From: a virus
Lineage: Duplodnaviria > Caudoviricetes
DNA: 64,000 nt
Reading direction: 5' to 3' (one strand)
Virus record (IMG/VR): IMGVR_UViG_3300021400_000063
Position numbers and translations under genes: made by a program
Shown: positions 6,902 to 64,000 of the stretch, one piece after another
How the letters are laid out: every line of letters begins with the position of its first letter
Numbering within the stretch: position 1 is the stretch's first letter
The notes under the pieces: generated by a model
The model's database searches: none
What the model was told of the DNA's origin: nothing
What the model saw: only the letters and a program-made list of their open reading frames with translations

Positions 6902-9900
6902 ATGGGTATTAATACAAACTCATTTGAAAATTATAAAAATACTGTTGAAGCATCTGAAAAAGGTGGTTTTTTAAGTAAATTAAAAGGCTTCGGATTAGAT
7001 TCACTTGGTGGTCTTGACTCATTTATGGGAAAAGACATCATAAATGCAAATAAATTATTAAAATCTTTTAAAGGATTTAATCTCTCTGATATTCTTTCGA
7101 ATTTAGGAGGATTTTTCCAAAACTTAGCGCTTTCAGCATTAGATATGTTGAAAGATATGGGTATGGATGCCCTGAGACAACTTCAAAATGCTTCTATAAA
7201 CTTTGCATCAAATCTTGTAGAAGATTTGTATAATAATGTACGTTCGATGATGTATATTCCTGATAATGCTTTTGCTTTAACATTACAAGGTTTATATGAA
7301 GCTGGTGCAGATTTAGCATATAACGATCATTATATTCGTTCTTCAGCTTTACAAAGAGATTGGACTATAAGTTTAAAATTTATAGATGATCAATATGGTA
7401 TAGATTATAATATTCGAGATTATAAAGATCTTGAAAAAGATTTAGCTATATGTGCTGAACATTCATGCGTTAATAATTTGTACTATATATTCCGTAAAAT
7501 ATACGATCAATTAAATGATGTTCGATCTGATATAGTTGTATCAGAAACATCTTTAAAACCATATTCAAATACTATTAAAGGTTTCAAGCTTGTATCTTAT
7601 GATGAAATACCTAATTGTGATAATCTTTATGTACAAATTGGTGAAGAAAAAACTAAAATTAATAAAGATACTGAACAAGGTATAAACTTTATTCAAAATC
7701 ATAAAGATATGGATTATTATACTGAAACTATAATCGATTATGAAGGTATAGCTAATGGTTTGTATTTAGGTTATAACTATGAAACAATTGAAACTAAAAA
7801 CGATGTTGAAGCTAAATATAATGCTTATTTAGAGAATGTTAAACTTGTAAAAAATATAGAACGTTTAATGTTAGTTTATTTTAAATCATTAATAGTTCAT
7901 AGTTATACATATTTAAATGCTTCTTCTGTACAAAAATTCTTTTCTGATTTTGATACTGTTCTTTTACCTAAGTATTATGGAAAAACTGATGATAAATATA
8001 ATGGAACATACGCTTTTACACAAAATGATTGTTTAATAATGATGCCTGATTATAAAGGCAATGATGTTACTAAAAGTGATATGTATACCCAAGAATTATT
8101 AACTCAAAAAAATAATGAATATATCGCTGTATCAGGTGCTAGATCAGAAGCTTCTAAAGCTGCTATGGAAGCATTGGAAGCTAAAAATGCTGCTAAAACA
8201 ACTACAGCTTCTGCAGCAGAAGCTGGTACCACTGGAGCTATAGCTAAAATTAAAGCATTTAGAGCAAATGCAATGGAAGCCGTAGCAAAAAATCAAAATG
8301 TTTCATATACAGCTAATATTAAGAATGGAATATCTAAAACACTTCAAAATAATTCTAACAGTTTATGGAATAGATCTGGAAGTGGAATTAATGCTAAACA
8401 AGATAGTAAACGTATTTCTTCTATGTATGATCGTGATGTTGTTAAAAAATATGAACTTGTTGGAAGTTTATCTGATGCATTGGATGAGATAGATTTTTTA
8501 AATAAAGATACTGAATATATTGTTTTAAGAAATAAAAATATTAAACAAATTTATGCTCTTTTAGCTAATCCTACTATTTATGGTAATAATAGAATGGTTA
8601 ATGATTATTTCTATAAACGTTGTCAGATAAAAACAATGAATACTTTAAATCAATCATTAGCTAAGGCTGGAAGTATTTTAGGTTCATCTTACGCTGTACA
8701 AGCGCTATTTGATCTCGAAAATGCTGTTGATTCATCAGCATATGTATATCTTAAGAAAGTAGAAAACTATCTTTTAAATCCTAAAGAACACTCATATTAT
8801 GGTATGGACACTATGTTTAGTTCTGGCAATAATATGTGGACACAGTTTGGTGATTATTTTAAACAAGCATATTCCTGGGACGATTCTATAAGCGATGATC
8901 CTGAATTAGAATCTATTATTGAAAAACTTTCAGAAGTTTCAAATACAACATCTGACACTTCTTCAAAAACTAGTGTATCTGAAATTGATCCTATAAAAGA
9001 TTTAACTTCTGAAAATGGTGCTAATGGTGAAACTTATGCAGAAATATTAAATCAATTAGATTCTGAAAATACTGCAAAATTATATGTTGATAATGTTGTT
9101 AGATTTATGTCTGAAATTTCGATGTTGGATCTTAGAGATATGTTAGTTAAATATCTTACAGCTTTCTACAAATATATGAAAGCTAGAGATTATGAACCTG
9201 ATACATATTTCGAAACTCTTATTAAATCAATGTCTGGTATTGACGGAATTACACATTATGATGATTTAAATTCCAAAGTATTTAGTAAATCTACACATAA
9301 AACATTATTAGCTAATGGTAAATTCTTAGTATCTATATATGCTTTAAAGAATTCTTACAAATATTTCTTAGAGAATGAAAAAGATACAAATAAAGAAGAA
9401 CTTACTAAAATTTACAATCTTGTATTTGCTATGGGTTCAGCAGATATTCAAATGAGTGGAACTATAACAGGATTGTACAAATTTGATAAAGAGCAATTAA
9501 ATTCTCTTGTAAAAAGAAATTTCTTTACATCTATAGACCATCTTAAATCTATAAATGATAAAACTAAACCACTTATTAAAACAGCTCCAAGATATAAAGA
9601 TAATTTAACCAAATCATTTAACTATAAATTCGATTTACGTGGTATATCAGGTTATAGTTTAGATAATGATAGAATTTTATATGTACCAGAAAATAGTACT
9701 GGAGATTGGAATTCTATAGGTGTAAGTAATGATAAAGAAATTGGATCTTTCTTTTGTAAAAGTAATATAAATGGTGATGGTAACGGAATTTATAGAAGAA
9801 CTTATGAAGGAACTACTTTAAATAGAATTGATGTAGTTTCTAATTCTGGAACAAAAATCACAGATAGAGAATTCTTTGTAATTACATTTGACGATCATGG

Positions 9901-12343: not shown

Positions 12344-13180
12344 TTATTCAGGTTTAATAATAGATTTGAAAATTTCGATATCTTCATCATAGAATGTATT
12401 ATTAATAGTAATATTCATTCTAGAATGTTCAGCAATTTTAACAAATTCTTCCATAGCAGCTTTATTTGTGAAGAAATACATCTTATTAGGAACTTTAGGA
12501 TCGTTAACATTTATTGTTGGATCATCATGACGTCCAACTATATCTTTAATAAGAGACATATAAATTCCGCAGAGAATGATATATTTATTGAATGCTGCAC
12601 CGTTATAATTAAAATCATATTCATTGATTTTATTATTTTTCATAAACATACAGAAATGATTTATAGCCATTCTGTATTCACCAGAACTTATAGTAGAATT
12701 TAAAGATGCTATTTCATCAGTCAATAAAGATAACATTTTATCTTCTGAAATAGTATTAGTTTTTGTTTTATTCAAGAATGGACAATCCTCTTTATCAAAA
12801 GAACCAAAGTTTACACCTGAGATCTGATCGATTTTAATTAAAAATGTTGAGACACCATCTATAAAATTTGGTTTATTGTTATTTTGTGTAACATATAATG
12901 CACCATTATTGTTATATGCATAGAAATAGATGAAATCATCGCCTATGAATTTAGCTTTAGCTACGAATATTGGTTGATTAAAACCGTTAACATATACTGA
13001 ATACATTAATCGTTTATTTCTTGGTTTATTACCATTAAAATCTTCAATAGCATGTAACAAATCCATAATTGTATTGTTACCATCCATAAATTGAGCTGTT
13101 AATTCTGGATCATAAAGACTGAAAGATCGATCTTTCGGATCAATAATATCTGCTGATGTTATATAAAAATTTTGTATCAT
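12344..13180 (-). CDS. Hypothetical protein
   Basis: 278 aa, AAGGAG RBS and late-type promoter on the minus strand. Confidence 0.85.
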   Translation of the reverse strand: MIQNFYITSADIIDPKDRSFSLYDPELTAQFMDGNNTIMDLLHAIEDFNGNKPRNKRLMYSVYVNGFNQPIFVAKAKFIGDDFIYFYAYNNNGALYVTQNNNKPNFIDGVSTFLIKIDQISGVNFGSFDKEDCPFLNKTKTNTISEDKMLSLLTDEIASLNSTISSGEYRMAINHFCMFMKNNKINEYDFNYNGAAFNKYIILCGIYMSLIKDIVGRHDDPTINVNDPKVPNKMYFFTNKAAMEEFVKIAEHSRMNITINNTFYDEDIEIFKSIIKPE

Positions 13181-13211: not shown

Positions 13212-13224
13212 TATATTAATATGT
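13212..13224 (-). promoter_or_regulatory. Late-type promoter, leftward member of a divergent pair
   Basis: Reverse complement reads ACATATTAATATA. Confidence 0.65.
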
Positions 13225-13233
13225 CGACCTATG

Positions 13234-13246
13234 ACAAATTAATATA
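13234..13246 (+). promoter_or_regulatory. Late-type promoter, rightward member of a divergent pair
   Basis: ACAAATTAATATA. Confidence 0.65.
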
Positions 13247-13270
13247 TTCTTTATAAGAAAGGAGTAAATT

Positions 13271-13726
13271 GTGAATGAAAAAACTATTAAAAAGATTATT
13301 ATTTGTATTATTGTTGGTTTTATTTGTGCTTGCACCTTGCTTGGCACAGGAATCGGAATTGGATACAGAATTGCAACAAAATCATCAGATGGAAGAGCTT
13401 CAGAAACCATTGGAGACCTTAAATCTGACATTTCCACTCTTAAATCTGAAAAAGAACGACTTACAGACGAACGAGATAAACTTATTTCCGAACTTGCAGT
13501 TTCCAACGGTAAACTCGAATCCATTGCAACCGAACTCAAACGATGTAGTGAAGACTATGCTCAACAATCAGCTGAATACAGTAAACGAATTGAGGGAGCT
13601 AACCTTGACGTACTCGAATACAATAGAATCTACGTTGAAGGAGTCCTTGGAATCTGCGACACAATGGAAAGAACAATCAATACTATTGCAGCAACATGTG
13701 GATACGATAACACAGAAATTAAATGA
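13271..13726 (+). CDS. N-terminal TM plus coiled-coil protein (i-spanin/Rz-like candidate), overlapping the next gene
   Basis: GTG 6 nt after AAGGAG; basic N-terminus, TM helix IIICIIVGFICACTLLGTGIGIGY, heptad coiled coil, distal Cys residues. Confidence 0.65.
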   Translation: MNEKTIKKIIICIIVGFICACTLLGTGIGIGYRIATKSSDGRASETIGDLKSDISTLKSEKERLTDERDKLISELAVSNGKLESIATELKRCSEDYAQQSAEYSKRIEGANLDVLEYNRIYVEGVLGICDTMERTINTIAATCGYDNTEIK

Positions 13727-14042
13727 AGTAGTTGAAGAAAATAAGCAGATTGAAGCTGCTTTAATTTCTAATAACGAAGATGAACATAATACTAATTTAT
13801 TATTTGGTGAGGCTTTAGAGAGAGCTGAATTAGCAGAAAAACAAGTAGTTAAATTAGAACGAGCATTCGACAATGCTATAATAGGTTTTAGTATTGGTGG
13901 TACTGGAATTGGTGTTGGTACAGGAATTATGACTGCTGGAATAGTTAATGGTGAAGTAGATAAAATAATAACTGGTGCAGGTATCGATTTAGCATCAGTT
14001 GGATTCTGGTTAATAGGCCATTATGTATTTAAAATTTTCTAA
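13275..14042 (+). CDS. Exported coiled-coil protein with C-terminal Gly-rich hydrophobic hairpin (spanin-partner candidate)
   Basis: Signal peptide MKKLLKRLLFVLLLVLFVLAPCLA-QE, long coiled coil, two C-terminal hydrophobic segments. Confidence 0.7.
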   Translation: MKKLLKRLLFVLLLVLFVLAPCLAQESELDTELQQNHQMEELQKPLETLNLTFPLLNLKKNDLQTNEINLFPNLQFPTVNSNPLQPNSNDVVKTMLNNQLNTVNELRELTLTYSNTIESTLKESLESATQWKEQSILLQQHVDTITQKLNEVVEENKQIEAALISNNEDEHNTNLLFGEALERAELAEKQVVKLERAFDNAIIGFSIGGTGIGVGTGIMTAGIVNGEVDKIITGAGIDLASVGFWLIGHYVFKIF

Positions 14043-14044
14043 TA

Positions 14045-14070
14045 AAAAGGTGCGTTAAATCGCACCTTTT
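14045..14070 (+). terminator. Intrinsic terminator
   Basis: AAAAGGTGCG / CGCACCTTTT. Confidence 0.8.
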
Positions 14071-14136: not shown

Positions 14137-15438
14137 ATGGCAGAAGAAAATGTAAATTCAGTTGCAACTGGAAATGGAGAACCTGTAATTTCGCAGGCTA
14201 AGGCAAGACAGAAGGTAAGATTCGTAATTATTACCGAAGGTCAAGGTGGAGCTAACATTGGTATGACTCTTAAGAGTTGTTTACCAAATAATCCATACTT
14301 GATTGCCGTCAACACAAGTGATCAGGATCTTGATCAGTTGAATCTTCCTGATGCTCAGAAATTCAAAATCGGAGGTGCTAATGCTGATGGTGCTGGTAAA
14401 AACAGAAACCGTGCAAAAGCATACTTCAAAGGATATTCTGCAGATTTCCAGGGACAGAAATTCGATGCTCTTCAGACATTTGTAGCTTATTATGAAGAAG
14501 TACTGTTTCATCCTGAAGTACAGACAATCATTATCAACTGTTTCTCAGCTGATGGTGGTACTGGTTCTGGAATTGGACCTATGTTAACAACTTATCTTAC
14601 TAACTATGTTAATAAGGCTGAGAAGTTCTCATACAATGGAAAGGAATATGTTATTGATGATCTCACCAATACGGTTCCACGTCCAGTTGTAATTGGTATC
14701 GTTCCAAAATGTTCTGTATCAGCAGGTCAGCAGAATCTTCAGAATACAATTGAATGTTTCGTTGACATCCAGAATGCAATTGATAAGGGATTAGCTAACT
14801 TCTTCATCGCTGATAACAATTTACCTTCATCAGTTAAATACACAAATACTGATGAAATGTATCGTATCATCAATGCAAGAATTGCTATGCCTATTCTCAA
14901 ATTCCTTGGAATTGAAATGAACTCATCATTGAAATGTATGGATCTTCAGGATAAAGTAAACACACTTCGTATTCCTGGATGTTCAGCATTCCTTTCAATC
15001 AGCAATGAAAACAAATTCCAGTTCACAATTCCACAGGGTCAGTCTTGTAAACGTATTGTAGAAATGCTTAAGTTTACTGAAGATGGTGCAGAAGAAAAAG
15101 CTGCTAAGCAGATCCGCACAAATTATGACATTATGTCTCGTGACATCATGTCAGTATTCTTTGAACTTGATAAAATGAGTATTGATGGAGTAGATTCTAT
15201 TTCTAAAGAACTCATTGAAGAATCTATGATTGGATTCTTTGGATTCACTTCATTGAATGCTGTGGTTGAAGATCTTCGTGCAAATCTTCGTCGTTTGACA
15301 GAATCAAATGAAAAGAAAGCAGAAGTTCTTAAATCTGAATCAGTAGGTTTCTCTTCTGTAAAAGAAGATGCTGCTGCACTTCAGGATGCTTTCGGGGCAA
15401 AGACTATGTCTAATGAACAGCTTGCTGATCTGTTCTAA
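14137..15438 (+). CDS. phuZ: Tubulin/FtsZ-family GTPase (PhuZ/TubZ-like)
   Basis: GQGGANIG (T1 loop), VNTS, GADGAGKNR, SADGGTGSG (tubulin signature), DN, MDLQD (T7-like); C-terminal helical tail. Confidence 0.9.
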   Translation: MAEENVNSVATGNGEPVISQAKARQKVRFVIITEGQGGANIGMTLKSCLPNNPYLIAVNTSDQDLDQLNLPDAQKFKIGGANADGAGKNRNRAKAYFKGYSADFQGQKFDALQTFVAYYEEVLFHPEVQTIIINCFSADGGTGSGIGPMLTTYLTNYVNKAEKFSYNGKEYVIDDLTNTVPRPVVIGIVPKCSVSAGQQNLQNTIECFVDIQNAIDKGLANFFIADNNLPSSVKYTNTDEMYRIINARIAMPILKFLGIEMNSSLKCMDLQDKVNTLRIPGCSAFLSISNENKFQFTIPQGQSCKRIVEMLKFTEDGAEEKAAKQIRTNYDIMSRDIMSVFFELDKMSIDGVDSISKELIEESMIGFFGFTSLNAVVEDLRANLRRLTESNEKKAEVLKSESVGFSSVKEDAAALQDAFGAKTMSNEQLADLF

Positions 15439-48662: not shown

Positions 48663-50801
48663 ATGTTGTCTTTCAAAGTAAATGAATTGGTTACTAGTTT
48701 ATGCAAGAAGGAATTAGTTATTAAACTAAAAGAAATTTTTGATTATTTTACAAACAAGCGAGATTATGATATCTTTTGTGAAATAATTGAGAATTATATC
48801 CTGGATGATTATTCCAGAGCAACAAATGAAACCGTAAAGATAATATGTGAGGATGACGAAGAAGTAGAAATTACATTATTTCAGTTCCTTATAAACTTAT
48901 ACTTTCTCGAATTTAATTTCATGTACAAAATTCCAATTACAAGAGATTGGATGCAGGATATTGATGTTAACTTCTTAAAAGATTATCATAAAAATCTTGA
49001 AAAGATTTGTCAGGAAAAGATCTATCCAATTATTGAAAAGAAGAAAATTAATTCTGAAGAATGTTTTTCATTCATTCTTTCTCATATAACTGAAAGAATG
49101 GAACAGTTGTCTGAATTATTGGCAACCATTTCTTCTCCAACAATTTCAATCATCGATCTTATTGATTTCTGTGGAAGAAATAAAGAATTTGATAATCTTC
49201 TTAATACTACACTTGATGATACTAAATCATCAGCGCAGCTCGAAGCTCAGTTGAAAGAAGATGGACAGAAATTGTTCGATATTATTCTTAAAGATGAAAA
49301 TTCATGTTTGTTCCCATTTGTACAATCAAATTGTTTGTCAGTATTACAGCTTACTCAGATGTTCATTGCTGTAGGTCCACGTATGTCTATTAACAACATC
49401 GTTCTTCCCCATATTATGAAACGTTCATATTTGAATGGATTACAGAATGTTGGTGATCAGATTGCTGAATCAGAACTTGCTGCGAAAGCTCTTATTTATA
49501 AGAAAAAGTTCGTAGGTGTTTCTGGTTACATGTCACGTGAAACAAACTTAGCAGGTCTTAATAATCGTATTGATTATAAGATGAATGATTGTGGAACCAA
49601 ACACTATATTAATTATGAAGTTAAAACTCCAAAACATCTTGAATTAATAATTTCTAAGAATATCATTATGAATAATGGTAAACTTAAGAAAGTTACAAAG
49701 AACGATACTGATTTAATCGGAACAACTGTAAAACTTAGAAGTATTTGTACTTGTGCACATCCAGTTAAAGGACTTGTATGTAAAGCTTGTTACGGTAATC
49801 CACCAGACTTTAAATCTTCTTATAGAATTGGCGGTGCAACATCTACAGAAGTTGAAAACAAATTGTCAAATGCTGTAATGGCTGTAAAACATGCTGCTGG
49901 TACAAAAACTAAAGAATTTGATGATGAAGTTTTACTTTCTATATTCACAAATGATGAAAATAGATTGGTATTGAAACGTCTCGAAGATCCAGAAAATACT
50001 TCTATCATATTCGATAAAGAGTACATTGAAGATATTATCGATCGTGTTAGAAATGATGAATATGACGATTACGATGATTATGATGACGAAGAAGATGACG
50101 ATGATGATGAAGGATCTACACGTGTAGTTTCTAAAATGCTTGTCGATCTTAAAATCGTTACAAAGAAAATTGATGCTAATGGTGAACCTTATGAAGATGA
50201 ATATGTTGTAAAGCTTGATGGTTCATTCTTAACATTGTCTGAAGATATGCTTTCTGGAAATAACTTGAAAGCTATTGATATTCCGATCGATTCAGATGTA
50301 GCAGAATTGAAACTTTCAAATATTAAACCTGGAACACCAGTATTTAATATTAAATATATTACAGCTGAAACATCAAGATATCTTAAGGAACTTAAGAATA
50401 TTATTGAACGTTCTAAACCTAATTGGTATTTTAATGATCTTGATACACCATTGAATGATTTCGCTGATCTTGTAATTGAGGCAGGATTGAAGAATGAAGA
50501 GATGGTATTCTTGGAACCAATTATTTATGCTTTAACAAGAGATCAGAACAATATTCTTAAACATCCTGATTTCAGTAAAGATAATCCTGAATTTGTAGTA
50601 ATGAATTTGAAAACTGCTATATTTAAAGGTGATTTATTAAGTGCATTAGTTTATCAGGAAGTTTCTAAAACAATTAAAGATATTGATTCATTTGAACGTG
50701 ATGGAATAGGTGATGGTATTCATGATTCATCATTTAGAACAACCGTAAAACACGATTTCAATTATATGAAGAAAGCTTTAAAGAAAGCTAAGATTATTTA
50801 A
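48663..50801 (+). CDS. rpoC: RNA polymerase beta' C-terminal subunit (probably non-virion RNAP)
   Basis: Bridge helix VSGYMSRE (cf. SGYLTRR), NDCGT, LRSICTC...VCKACYG Zn site, trigger-loop-like VMAVKH; early motif at 48607-48615. Confidence 0.88.
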   Translation: MLSFKVNELVTSLCKKELVIKLKEIFDYFTNKRDYDIFCEIIENYILDDYSRATNETVKIICEDDEEVEITLFQFLINLYFLEFNFMYKIPITRDWMQDIDVNFLKDYHKNLEKICQEKIYPIIEKKKINSEECFSFILSHITERMEQLSELLATISSPTISIIDLIDFCGRNKEFDNLLNTTLDDTKSSAQLEAQLKEDGQKLFDIILKDENSCLFPFVQSNCLSVLQLTQMFIAVGPRMSINNIVLPHIMKRSYLNGLQNVGDQIAESELAAKALIYKKKFVGVSGYMSRETNLAGLNNRIDYKMNDCGTKHYINYEVKTPKHLELIISKNIIMNNGKLKKVTKNDTDLIGTTVKLRSICTCAHPVKGLVCKACYGNPPDFKSSYRIGGATSTEVENKLSNAVMAVKHAAGTKTKEFDDEVLLSIFTNDENRLVLKRLEDPENTSIIFDKEYIEDIIDRVRNDEYDDYDDYDDEEDDDDDEGSTRVVSKMLVDLKIVTKKIDANGEPYEDEYVVKLDGSFLTLSEDMLSGNNLKAIDIPIDSDVAELKLSNIKPGTPVFNIKYITAETSRYLKELKNIIERSKPNWYFNDLDTPLNDFADLVIEAGLKNEEMVFLEPIIYALTRDQNNILKHPDFSKDNPEFVVMNLKTAIFKGDLLSALVYQEVSKTIKDIDSFERDGIGDGIHDSSFRTTVKHDFNYMKKALKKAKII

Positions 50802-62308: not shown

Positions 62309-64000
62309 TTAGATATAATCTTCAGGATTTAAAAGCCAAGATTCTTCACCTTTATGTTTATTAATCTTATGCTTATAATTATCTAACAATTTCTGAGCTT
62401 TTTCAGATTTACCAGCGTCTATAAGTTTTTGAGCTTTGTTTTGAATTCCTTCTCGTTCTTTACCAGCTTTAGCAGCAGCTTTAGCAGCCTTGTTTTCATT
62501 TTTCTGTGCTATTTTAGCATCTTTTTCTCTTTGTTTATATTCATCTCTATTCTTTTTATCTAATGTTTTTTGAGCTTTATTATGTAAAACATGATCTTTT
62601 GCTAAATGGGTATTTATTTCTTTGCCAGCGGCTTTTTCATCTTTATCAAGATTTTTATTAGTAGTAAATCCATTTTCATCAGCAAATTTATTACCTTCTT
62701 TTTTACCACCAAATTTTACACGTTTAGATACATATGAATTAAAAGCCGCGCGAACATCTTTATTTGTGTTAGACATAATTGAAACGACTTTAATAGCAAT
62801 TTTAATAATGTTATTCATCATTTTGAATGTAGTCATTGTAATAGATGCCCACTGATAAACGACTAATTCATCACCATTATCATTTGTTGTTTCTCTAGTT
62901 ACCAATTCTCCAGAATTATTCATAAGTTTTCTATCTTTATGTTTTAAATAATCTTGGAATTTCTTGTCTGATTCATTAACACTTCGTTCAACATTATTTA
63001 ATGTTGTGTTAATATCAGTTAAGCCTTCAGAAACAGCTGAAATAATTTTATCTATAGCCGAAATATTATCAGTTCCATAGATATCTTTATACATAGCATG
63101 TTTATCTTTTGTAACTTTTACACAAGGGTTTCCTGTGAAAATTTGAGCATAAGCATCAGGATCATGTTCCCAAGATAATTCCATAAGACAATTTTTGAAT
63201 TCTTTATTAAATGTTGCCAATGATTCTTTTGACACAGTTCTAATAGGATTAGGAACATGACTTGTATTAGGCATCATCGTTTTAAGAACATTATAAACAT
63301 CATTAATAGATCTAATAAAACCATCATAACTTTGGCTTCCAGTTTGAAGTTTATTATTGTATTTTTCAAGATCTGATGATTGAGAACGTAAAATATTTCC
63401 TACATGTTCCAATTCTTTAGTTGCTTTTGAAAAATACCGAACACTTTGTTCGCTTATTTTGATTTTAGAATTATTAGCATCACCTTTATCAGTAGCATAT
63501 GTACTAGATGTTTCAGCCAATGAATCCCAAATATCTTTTGTATCAGCAGGTGTTAATTGTGCTAAAGCTGCACTATTATCAGATTTTGAAAATTTAGATC
63601 TAATCCAATCAATTTTTTCACGAATCCATCCAACCATTTTTTCAAACAAACGTTTGATAACCGACCAAACTTTAGATAAGAAACTATCACGTTGTTCACC
63701 AATTTTATCATTAGGTAGTTTAGCAGGATTAGCACCAGATGTTTCACCAGTAGCTTCTTTAGTAGCTGCCTCTTCGAGAGACTGTTCAATAATAAAGTTT
63801 TCTACAGATTTACCATAATTTCCAGGTACATTTCTTGTATGTACATGGAGTTTTTTCAACATCTTAATCTTTTGATCAGCATTATAAGCATCGAGTTGAT
63901 TATATGTTTCAGCAAAATTTACAAGGTTTTCTGTAGAAGCTATTTCAAGACTCATAGAATCAAAATCGCCATCGAAATTTGTTTTCTTAGTATTGAAAAG
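62309..64000 (-). CDS. Probable internal head/ejection protein; true start probably beyond the window end
   Basis: Frame stays open from 63955 to 64000 (LFNTKKTNFDGDFDS-M); ENLVNFAETYNQLDAYNADQKIKMLKKL matches ENLAFLDTFQMIEAKNAADKIKMCKKL of the paralog; SLE/STE/SVE sites; amphipathic SFLSKVWSVIKRLFEKMVGWI. Confidence 0.7.
   Translation of the reverse strand, partial: LFNTKKTNFDGDFDSMSLEIASTENLVNFAETYNQLDAYNADQKIKMLKKLHVHTRNVPGNYGKSVENFIIEQSLEEAATKEATGETSGANPAKLPNDKIGEQRDSFLSKVWSVIKRLFEKMVGWIREKIDWIRSKFSKSDNSAALAQLTPADTKDIWDSLAETSSTYATDKGDANNSKIKISEQSVRYFSKATKELEHVGNILRSQSSDLEKYNNKLQTGSQSYDGFIRSINDVYNVLKTMMPNTSHVPNPIRTVSKESLATFNKEFKNCLMELSWEHDPDAYAQIFTGNPCVKVTKDKHAMYKDIYGTDNISAIDKIISAVSEGLTDINTTLNNVERSVNESDKKFQDYLKHKDRKLMNNSGELVTRETTNDNGDELVVYQWASITMTTFKMMNNIIKIAIKVVSIMSNTNKDVRAAFNSYVSKRVKFGGKKEGNKFADENGFTTNKNLDKDEKAAGKEINTHLAKDHVLHNKAQKTLDKKNRDEYKQREKDAKIAQKNENKAAKAAAKAGKEREGIQNKAQKLIDAGKSEKAQKLLDNYKHKINKHKGEESWLLNPEDYI

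Follow-up and report, generated by a model that had tools for sequence, protein, structure and literature searches.

In this study, two long genes were found to share a single Shine-Dalgarno (SD) sequence in a 64,000-nt stretch of viral DNA (IMG/VR record IMGVR_UViG_3300021400_000063), the whole of which is called the window below. The SD, AAGGAG, was read from the sequence at positions 13259–13264 of the plus strand and is conserved in related loci. Gene A (13271–13726, plus strand, 151 amino acids) starts with GTG at 13271 after a 6-nt spacer, while gene B (13275–14042, plus strand, 255 amino acids) starts with ATG at 13275 after a 10-nt spacer and lies in the +1 frame of A. The start codons are 4 bases apart, the two open reading frames have 452 nt in common, and B runs 316 nt past the end of A. 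The original prediction had described a GTG and an ATG behind one SD in two frames, and re-reading of the coordinates and spacers confirmed this layout. It had also called the pair inverted, which is true of size, B being the larger, but not of register, because a second gene in the +1 frame that runs past the end of the first has the register of Rz1 in Rz, at the extreme of the 'overlapped' class of spanins. The shared stretch had further been described as GC-richer than its neighbours. At 36.8% GC it does exceed the window (29.4%), but the adjoining kilobase of the tubulin gene reaches 35.5%, so the overlap is not distinct from every neighbour.

The window belongs to an AR9/phiKZ-like jumbo phage from ruminant gut samples, with a multisubunit RNA polymerase and a PhuZ-like tubulin. 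A sister record (276 kb, 99% complete; G002) served as a stand-in for its full genome. In every jumbo locus the pair sits between a divergent gene for a 278-aa protein (12344–13180 in the window) and the tubulin gene, which encodes 433 aa at 14137–15438 and lies directly downstream in all cases. The RNA polymerase of the phage carrying this tubulin is closest to those of AR9-type phages. Upstream of the pair is a putative late-type promoter motif, GACA-N6-TA (13233–13244, plus strand), found in 11 of 12 loci; the late promoter consensus of AR9 is AACA-N6-TA/G (PMC5312081). In the sister genome, RACA-N6-T[AG] precedes 47 of 180 SD-led genes against 15.5 expected, and many of these are large structural or polymerase genes. 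A second GACA-N6-TA on the minus strand (13214–13225) faces the divergent gene, and the back-to-back block of motifs (13214–13244) is almost invariant across related loci. The pair is closed by a hairpin resembling an intrinsic terminator (14045–14070, plus strand), and most related loci likewise have a hairpin after the stop. Contigs from RNA runs of one bovine metatranscriptome match parts of the pair at about 90–95% identity, which is not a measure of transcription or its level. The tubulin gene is covered by RNA-library contigs from three studies.

Both frames are confirmed as real genes by their sequence. Judging from the stop density in the shifted frames of the phage's genes, the chance of 150 open codons is about 4e-5 for a +1 shift and about 3e-12 for a +2 shift, and the A/B overlap is the longest shifted same-strand open run in the window. 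When either protein was recoded synonymously with the phage's own codon usage, the other frame was open in none of 5000 trials each (mean stops 10 and 16). Codon adaptation is poor within the overlap (0.55 and 0.43) and ordinary in the free tail of B (0.74), as expected under double coding. Database searches returned 50 homologues of A and 21 of B. In all 14 related loci, at 61–90% DNA identity, the SD, the GTG-N-ATG and both open frames are kept, with the SD 4–6 nt upstream of the GTG; the GTG/ATG pair of starts is fixed in the jumbo clade, and small phages have ATG/ATG, GTG/ATG or TTG/GTG. Insertions and deletions occur in step, B exceeding A by 104 residues in each complete pair among the 14 loci read, a count that leaves out one B ended by the contig end and one misassembled B. 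The latter (P0021), in which a DNA methylase fragment replaces the C-terminus of B, was treated as a misassembly.

The original prediction had proposed to test whether both frames stay open under purifying selection in homologous loci, and this was borne out: no stop interrupts the 151-aa frame in any of the 14 loci, down to 61% identity, and selection, although modest, is seen on both proteins. For A, dNN/dSN was 0.67 (0.44–1.03) in close pairs and 0.81 (0.68–0.97) in all pairs; for B, dNN/dNS was 0.62 (0.40–0.99) and 0.82 (0.66–1.03), respectively. These ratios rest on pairwise counts of non-independent events, and two of the four intervals touch 1. Changes altering A and B together were rarer than changes altering just one, and no stop-creating change in B was found among close pairs. 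It is thus highly improbable that one frame alone is a gene across the shared stretch and the other an open shadow. The modest ratios, the variable and predicted disordered residues 25–86 of B, and the fact that A and B are known from DNA rather than from protein-level evidence would fit a shadow; the lack of stops, the concerted indels and the recoding trials argue against it, as does the conservation of both starts and both signal features. Whatever its function, the locus is a well-supported natural case of one SD serving two long out-of-frame genes. Gene callers give one frame or a 3′ fragment at such loci; on the homologous loci they returned A or B only, or A plus a 104–118-aa piece of B. 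Two further cases of long same-strand overlapping open frames occur in the sister genome (23605–24691 and 220555–221152), the first without an SD for the second frame.

Protein A has the predicted features of an i-spanin, namely an N-terminal inner-membrane helix and a periplasmic helical domain. The membrane helix spans residues ~5–31, with a hydropathy peak of 2.5 at residues 9–27, and in the structure model (pLDDT 82) residues 39–142 form a single long helix. Cys129 and Cys143 are invariant across homologues and would be available in the periplasm for disulfides. A match to PHROG 739 (Rz-like; E 0.005) is weak and at the noise level of coiled coils. The prediction had pointed to a GTGIG[IV]G motif common to A and B. 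GTGIG in the present genome's A is not conserved among A homologues, and no alignment links the A and B families (hhalign 24%); the motif was rejected as a sign of duplication.

Protein B begins with a predicted cleavable signal peptide of 24 residues, which ends in C-L-A before Q25 at a predicted signal peptidase I site. In 12 of 12 loci examined the signal has 24 residues and a small-x-small end, followed by an invariant Gln25. Cys22 occupies position −3 of the site, mostly after Pro, and is replaced by Ser in one locus (L029), indicating that B is not a lipoprotein. The absence of a canonical lipobox (LAPC), as predicted, therefore stands, but the cysteine belongs to a signal peptidase I site and not to a defective lipobox. 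The structure model of B (pLDDT 61) has a low-confidence linker (25–86), a helix (88–197) and a Gly-rich helical hairpin (203–251) ending in Phe, the hairpin being moderately hydrophobic (best 19-residue mean 1.35). Mature B contains no cysteine in the present genome, and variable ones occur in the hairpin of distant loci. Searches of Pfam, PHROG, Atlas and cultured phages gave no family for B, and a fold search of its model against viral structures gave no match at E 0.001 or better. A complex prediction for A(36–151) with B(85–200) scored 0.31, the mark being 0.32.

A pair with the same +4 start layout and a homologous B is present in a small-phage record (L180). Its B shares 33% identity with the C-terminus of our B over 64 columns (hhalign 94%) and was the top of 7863 background frames (E 1.4e-6). 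The pair comes directly after genes for a lipase, a holin-like protein and a Peptidase_C39_2; the lipase (2240–2959 of that record) is of class 3 and lies within the putative lysis cassette, ahead of the other two. A search of viral contigs for DUF261 led to two unrelated small phages in which DUF261 is followed by a small two-helix holin-like gene and this in turn by a pair that co-starts in two frames and has the same topology, with an offset of −2 in one (L057/L075) and +4 in the other (L084/L085), while no co-starting pair was present in 30 chance loci. Scanning for the start motif gave 116 sites, seven with both frames open for 60 residues and four with hydrophobic N-termini in both. All four have a C-terminally hydrophobic B and holin-like neighbours, and three are located behind DUF261, Amidase_2 or Peptidase_C39_2; as the scan selected by start layout, its value as evidence is confined to the neighbours and the C-terminal similarity. 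The look-alikes include a pair after Amidase_2 and a membrane gene (L165) and another after holin-like genes (L219), and a locus found via the A profile (L032) has the same layout beside a weak 3D-domain gene. Apart from L180 (through B) and L032 (through A), these pairs have architecture in common and no detectable sequence similarity. The B proteins of small phages carry one strongly hydrophobic C-terminal segment, and DUF261 and C39_2 may, from their position, be lysins. Two other loci came up in these searches. In Staphylococcus phage DC4, both profiles weakly matched adjacent genes, which were rejected as tandem Gln/Asn-rich anchored paralogues without a C-terminal hairpin; three such membrane-anchored proteins, annotated as hypothetical, are encoded at 7475–8980 of the contig (L110). 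Near the start motif of another contig (L132; 48% GC), a DNA-methyltransferase-like gene has an ATG 4 nt downstream from which its +1 frame stays open over 236 codons.

Linkage to lysis genes, present for the homologue L180 and the look-alikes L057, L084 and L165, is absent in the jumbo phage: no lysin or holin adjoins the pair, and the candidate lysins of the sister genome lie 69 kb or more from it. These candidates are a DUF261-like gene with its own late-type motif and conserved Cys, His and Asp motifs (62762–63391; 1345–1974 of L040), which is also a candidate host marker, a membrane-anchored M23 peptidase (222746–223351; L034) and a membrane-anchored protein with an SLT-like motif (~49425–50384), the last two being candidate wall hydrolases. 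When a pair detector was run on the 276-kb sister genome and on a 55-kb phage, each yielded a single pair; two AR9-like jumbo relatives with monoderm hosts (Bacillus and Staphylococcus) yielded none. The detector's one false positive was on the antisense strand of 46% GC DNA. Neither the sister genome nor the 55-kb phage yielded a convincing SD-led lipoprotein or any other partner for the outer membrane.

A diderm host is likely, and we infer a Treponema-like spirochaete of the gut as the likeliest candidate. The DUF261-like gene of the sister genome points to spirochaetes, although its match is below the family cut-off; the sole named relatives of the DUF261 protein of L057 are on Borrelia plasmids. 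The source of L180 is IMG genome 2781125690, which may be a termite-gut Treponema bin. The nearest cultured phages have 28% identity and monoderm hosts, and a scan of a genome collection with the M23 peptidase gave generic M23 matches only and no host. On Borrelia linear plasmids (L082, 2948–4776; L083), DUF261 lies between small genes and a BBA14-family lipoprotein gene, with no dual-frame pair; this block is possibly a differently built lysis block.

Taken together, these data make it fairly probable that A and B form a lysis module akin to a two-component spanin, in which the second subunit carries a C-terminal membrane segment in place of a lipid, probably in phages of spirochaete hosts. 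This reading is supported by the anatomy and register, which match those of a two-component spanin (PMC6139136), by the L180 homologue in a lysis cassette and the look-alike pairs at cassette ends, by the single pair in each of the two genomes that lack a convincing SD-led lipoprotein and the absence of the pair from the two monoderm-host relatives, by the late-type promoter motif, and by the DUF261-like gene of the sister genome. The spanin-like pair originally predicted survives in part, as two real envelope proteins with a lysis role backed by conservation and by the cassette position of a homologue and several look-alikes; the lipoprotein that defines an o-spanin is lacking. The pair would act as a late two-gene unit in the final step of host lysis. 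Ribosomes on the single SD may initiate at either the GTG or the ATG, so that A and B would be made from one transcript. A would be anchored in the inner membrane through the helix at its N-terminus, with a helix of ~100 residues reaching into the periplasm, probably as a dimer disulfide-linked via Cys129/Cys143. After export by Sec and cleavage by signal peptidase I, B would have the Gly-rich hairpin at its C-terminus as its sole anchor; the membrane concerned is most likely the outer one, with the hairpin taking the place of an o-spanin's lipid. The long helices of A and B may pair across the periplasm and, after a lysin has cleared the peptidoglycan, draw the two membranes towards each other and disrupt the outer one in the manner of Rz/Rz1.

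Several observations speak against this reading. Besides the missing lysin and holin beside the jumbo pair and the missing lipobox, no route is shown by which a Sec-exported helical hairpin could reach the outer membrane, the B tail of small phages is hydrophobic enough to stop normally in the inner membrane, mature B is cysteine-free in this genome, the Rz-like match of A is at noise level, most look-alikes resemble the pair in architecture and not in sequence, and the nearest cultured phages infect monoderms. A signal peptidase I site together with a C-terminal hydrophobic segment gives ordinary type I inner-membrane topology. It is conceivable, if rather unlikely, that A (by its N-terminus) and B (type I, by its C-terminus) are both inner-membrane proteins with another lysis role. 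They might, for instance, regulate the holin or lysin from the periplasm, or act as a fusogen, with the free N-terminal part of B reaching the outer membrane. The signal and tail of B, and the single strongly hydrophobic tail in small phages, fit this topology; the cassette position suits any lysis accessory, and a type I inner-membrane protein has been named as a possible i-spanin (PMC6139136, section 15). However, the hairpins of the jumbo phage and of L180 are rich in Gly and of no more than moderate hydrophobicity, and would be weak inner-membrane stops; searches of both complete genomes found no lipoprotein or other partner in the outer membrane; and Rz/Rz1 share both the terminal place in the cassette and the +1 register.

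A non-lytic envelope role in the jumbo phage, in which the pair might tether the phage factory or the tubulin spindle to the membrane, exclude superinfecting phages or form part of the virion, appears improbable. The conserved place between the 278-aa gene and the PhuZ-like tubulin gene, far from the lysins, and a late-type promoter common to structural genes would agree with it, but a terminator separates the pair from the tubulin gene, nearly all of A and B is predicted to be extracytoplasmic, and the L180 homologue lies in the lysis cassette of a small phage. For the spanin-like reading itself, it is quite possible, though tentative, that the pair represents a third spanin class, a lipoprotein-free two-component fusogen used by the phages of spirochaetes and possibly of further diderms outside the proteobacteria, with an outer subunit anchored by a C-terminal helical hairpin, both subunits made in two frames from one ribosome-binding site, and a subunit ratio set by start-codon competition. 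Such a lipid-free pair, if real, would supply a search rule and raise the question of how a helical hairpin gets to the outer membrane.

The known two-component spanins comprise lambda Rz/Rz1, which is embedded, and an overlapped class (Kongari et al., 2018; PMC6139136). The present pair has no significant sequence match to any spanin family, and no paper describing the A/B family was found in the literature searched, the coverage of which was incomplete. As in Rz/Rz1-type spanins, A is predicted to be a type II membrane protein that contains a long helix and has cysteines towards its C-terminus, the second gene overlaps the first in the +1 frame, runs past its end and is often missed by gene callers, and relatives of the pair lie at the end of lysis cassettes. 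Unlike in those spanins, B is larger than A and starts 4 nt after it from the same SD, and where an o-spanin has a lipobox cysteine it has a signal peptidase I site; B is also helical, with a hydrophobic hairpin at its end. The lipoprotein feature being absent, the pair lies outside the published definition of two-component spanins, although it probably works like one. B also resembles the unimolecular spanin gp11 of phage T1 (PMC6139136) in combining an N-terminal export signal and a C-terminal membrane segment in one chain. However, gp11 is an outer-membrane lipoprotein acting alone, whereas B lacks the N-terminal lipoprotein signal with its lipoylation cysteine and always occurs with A. B is modelled as helical, while gp11 is presumably beta-rich. 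The published criteria leave out type I inner-membrane or outer-membrane proteins as spanins, and no example of these is given (PMC6139136, section 15). The A/B family would be a candidate for such other-topology spanins, and is probably a type of spanin-like module, as yet undescribed, that breaks the outer membrane without the usual lipoprotein.
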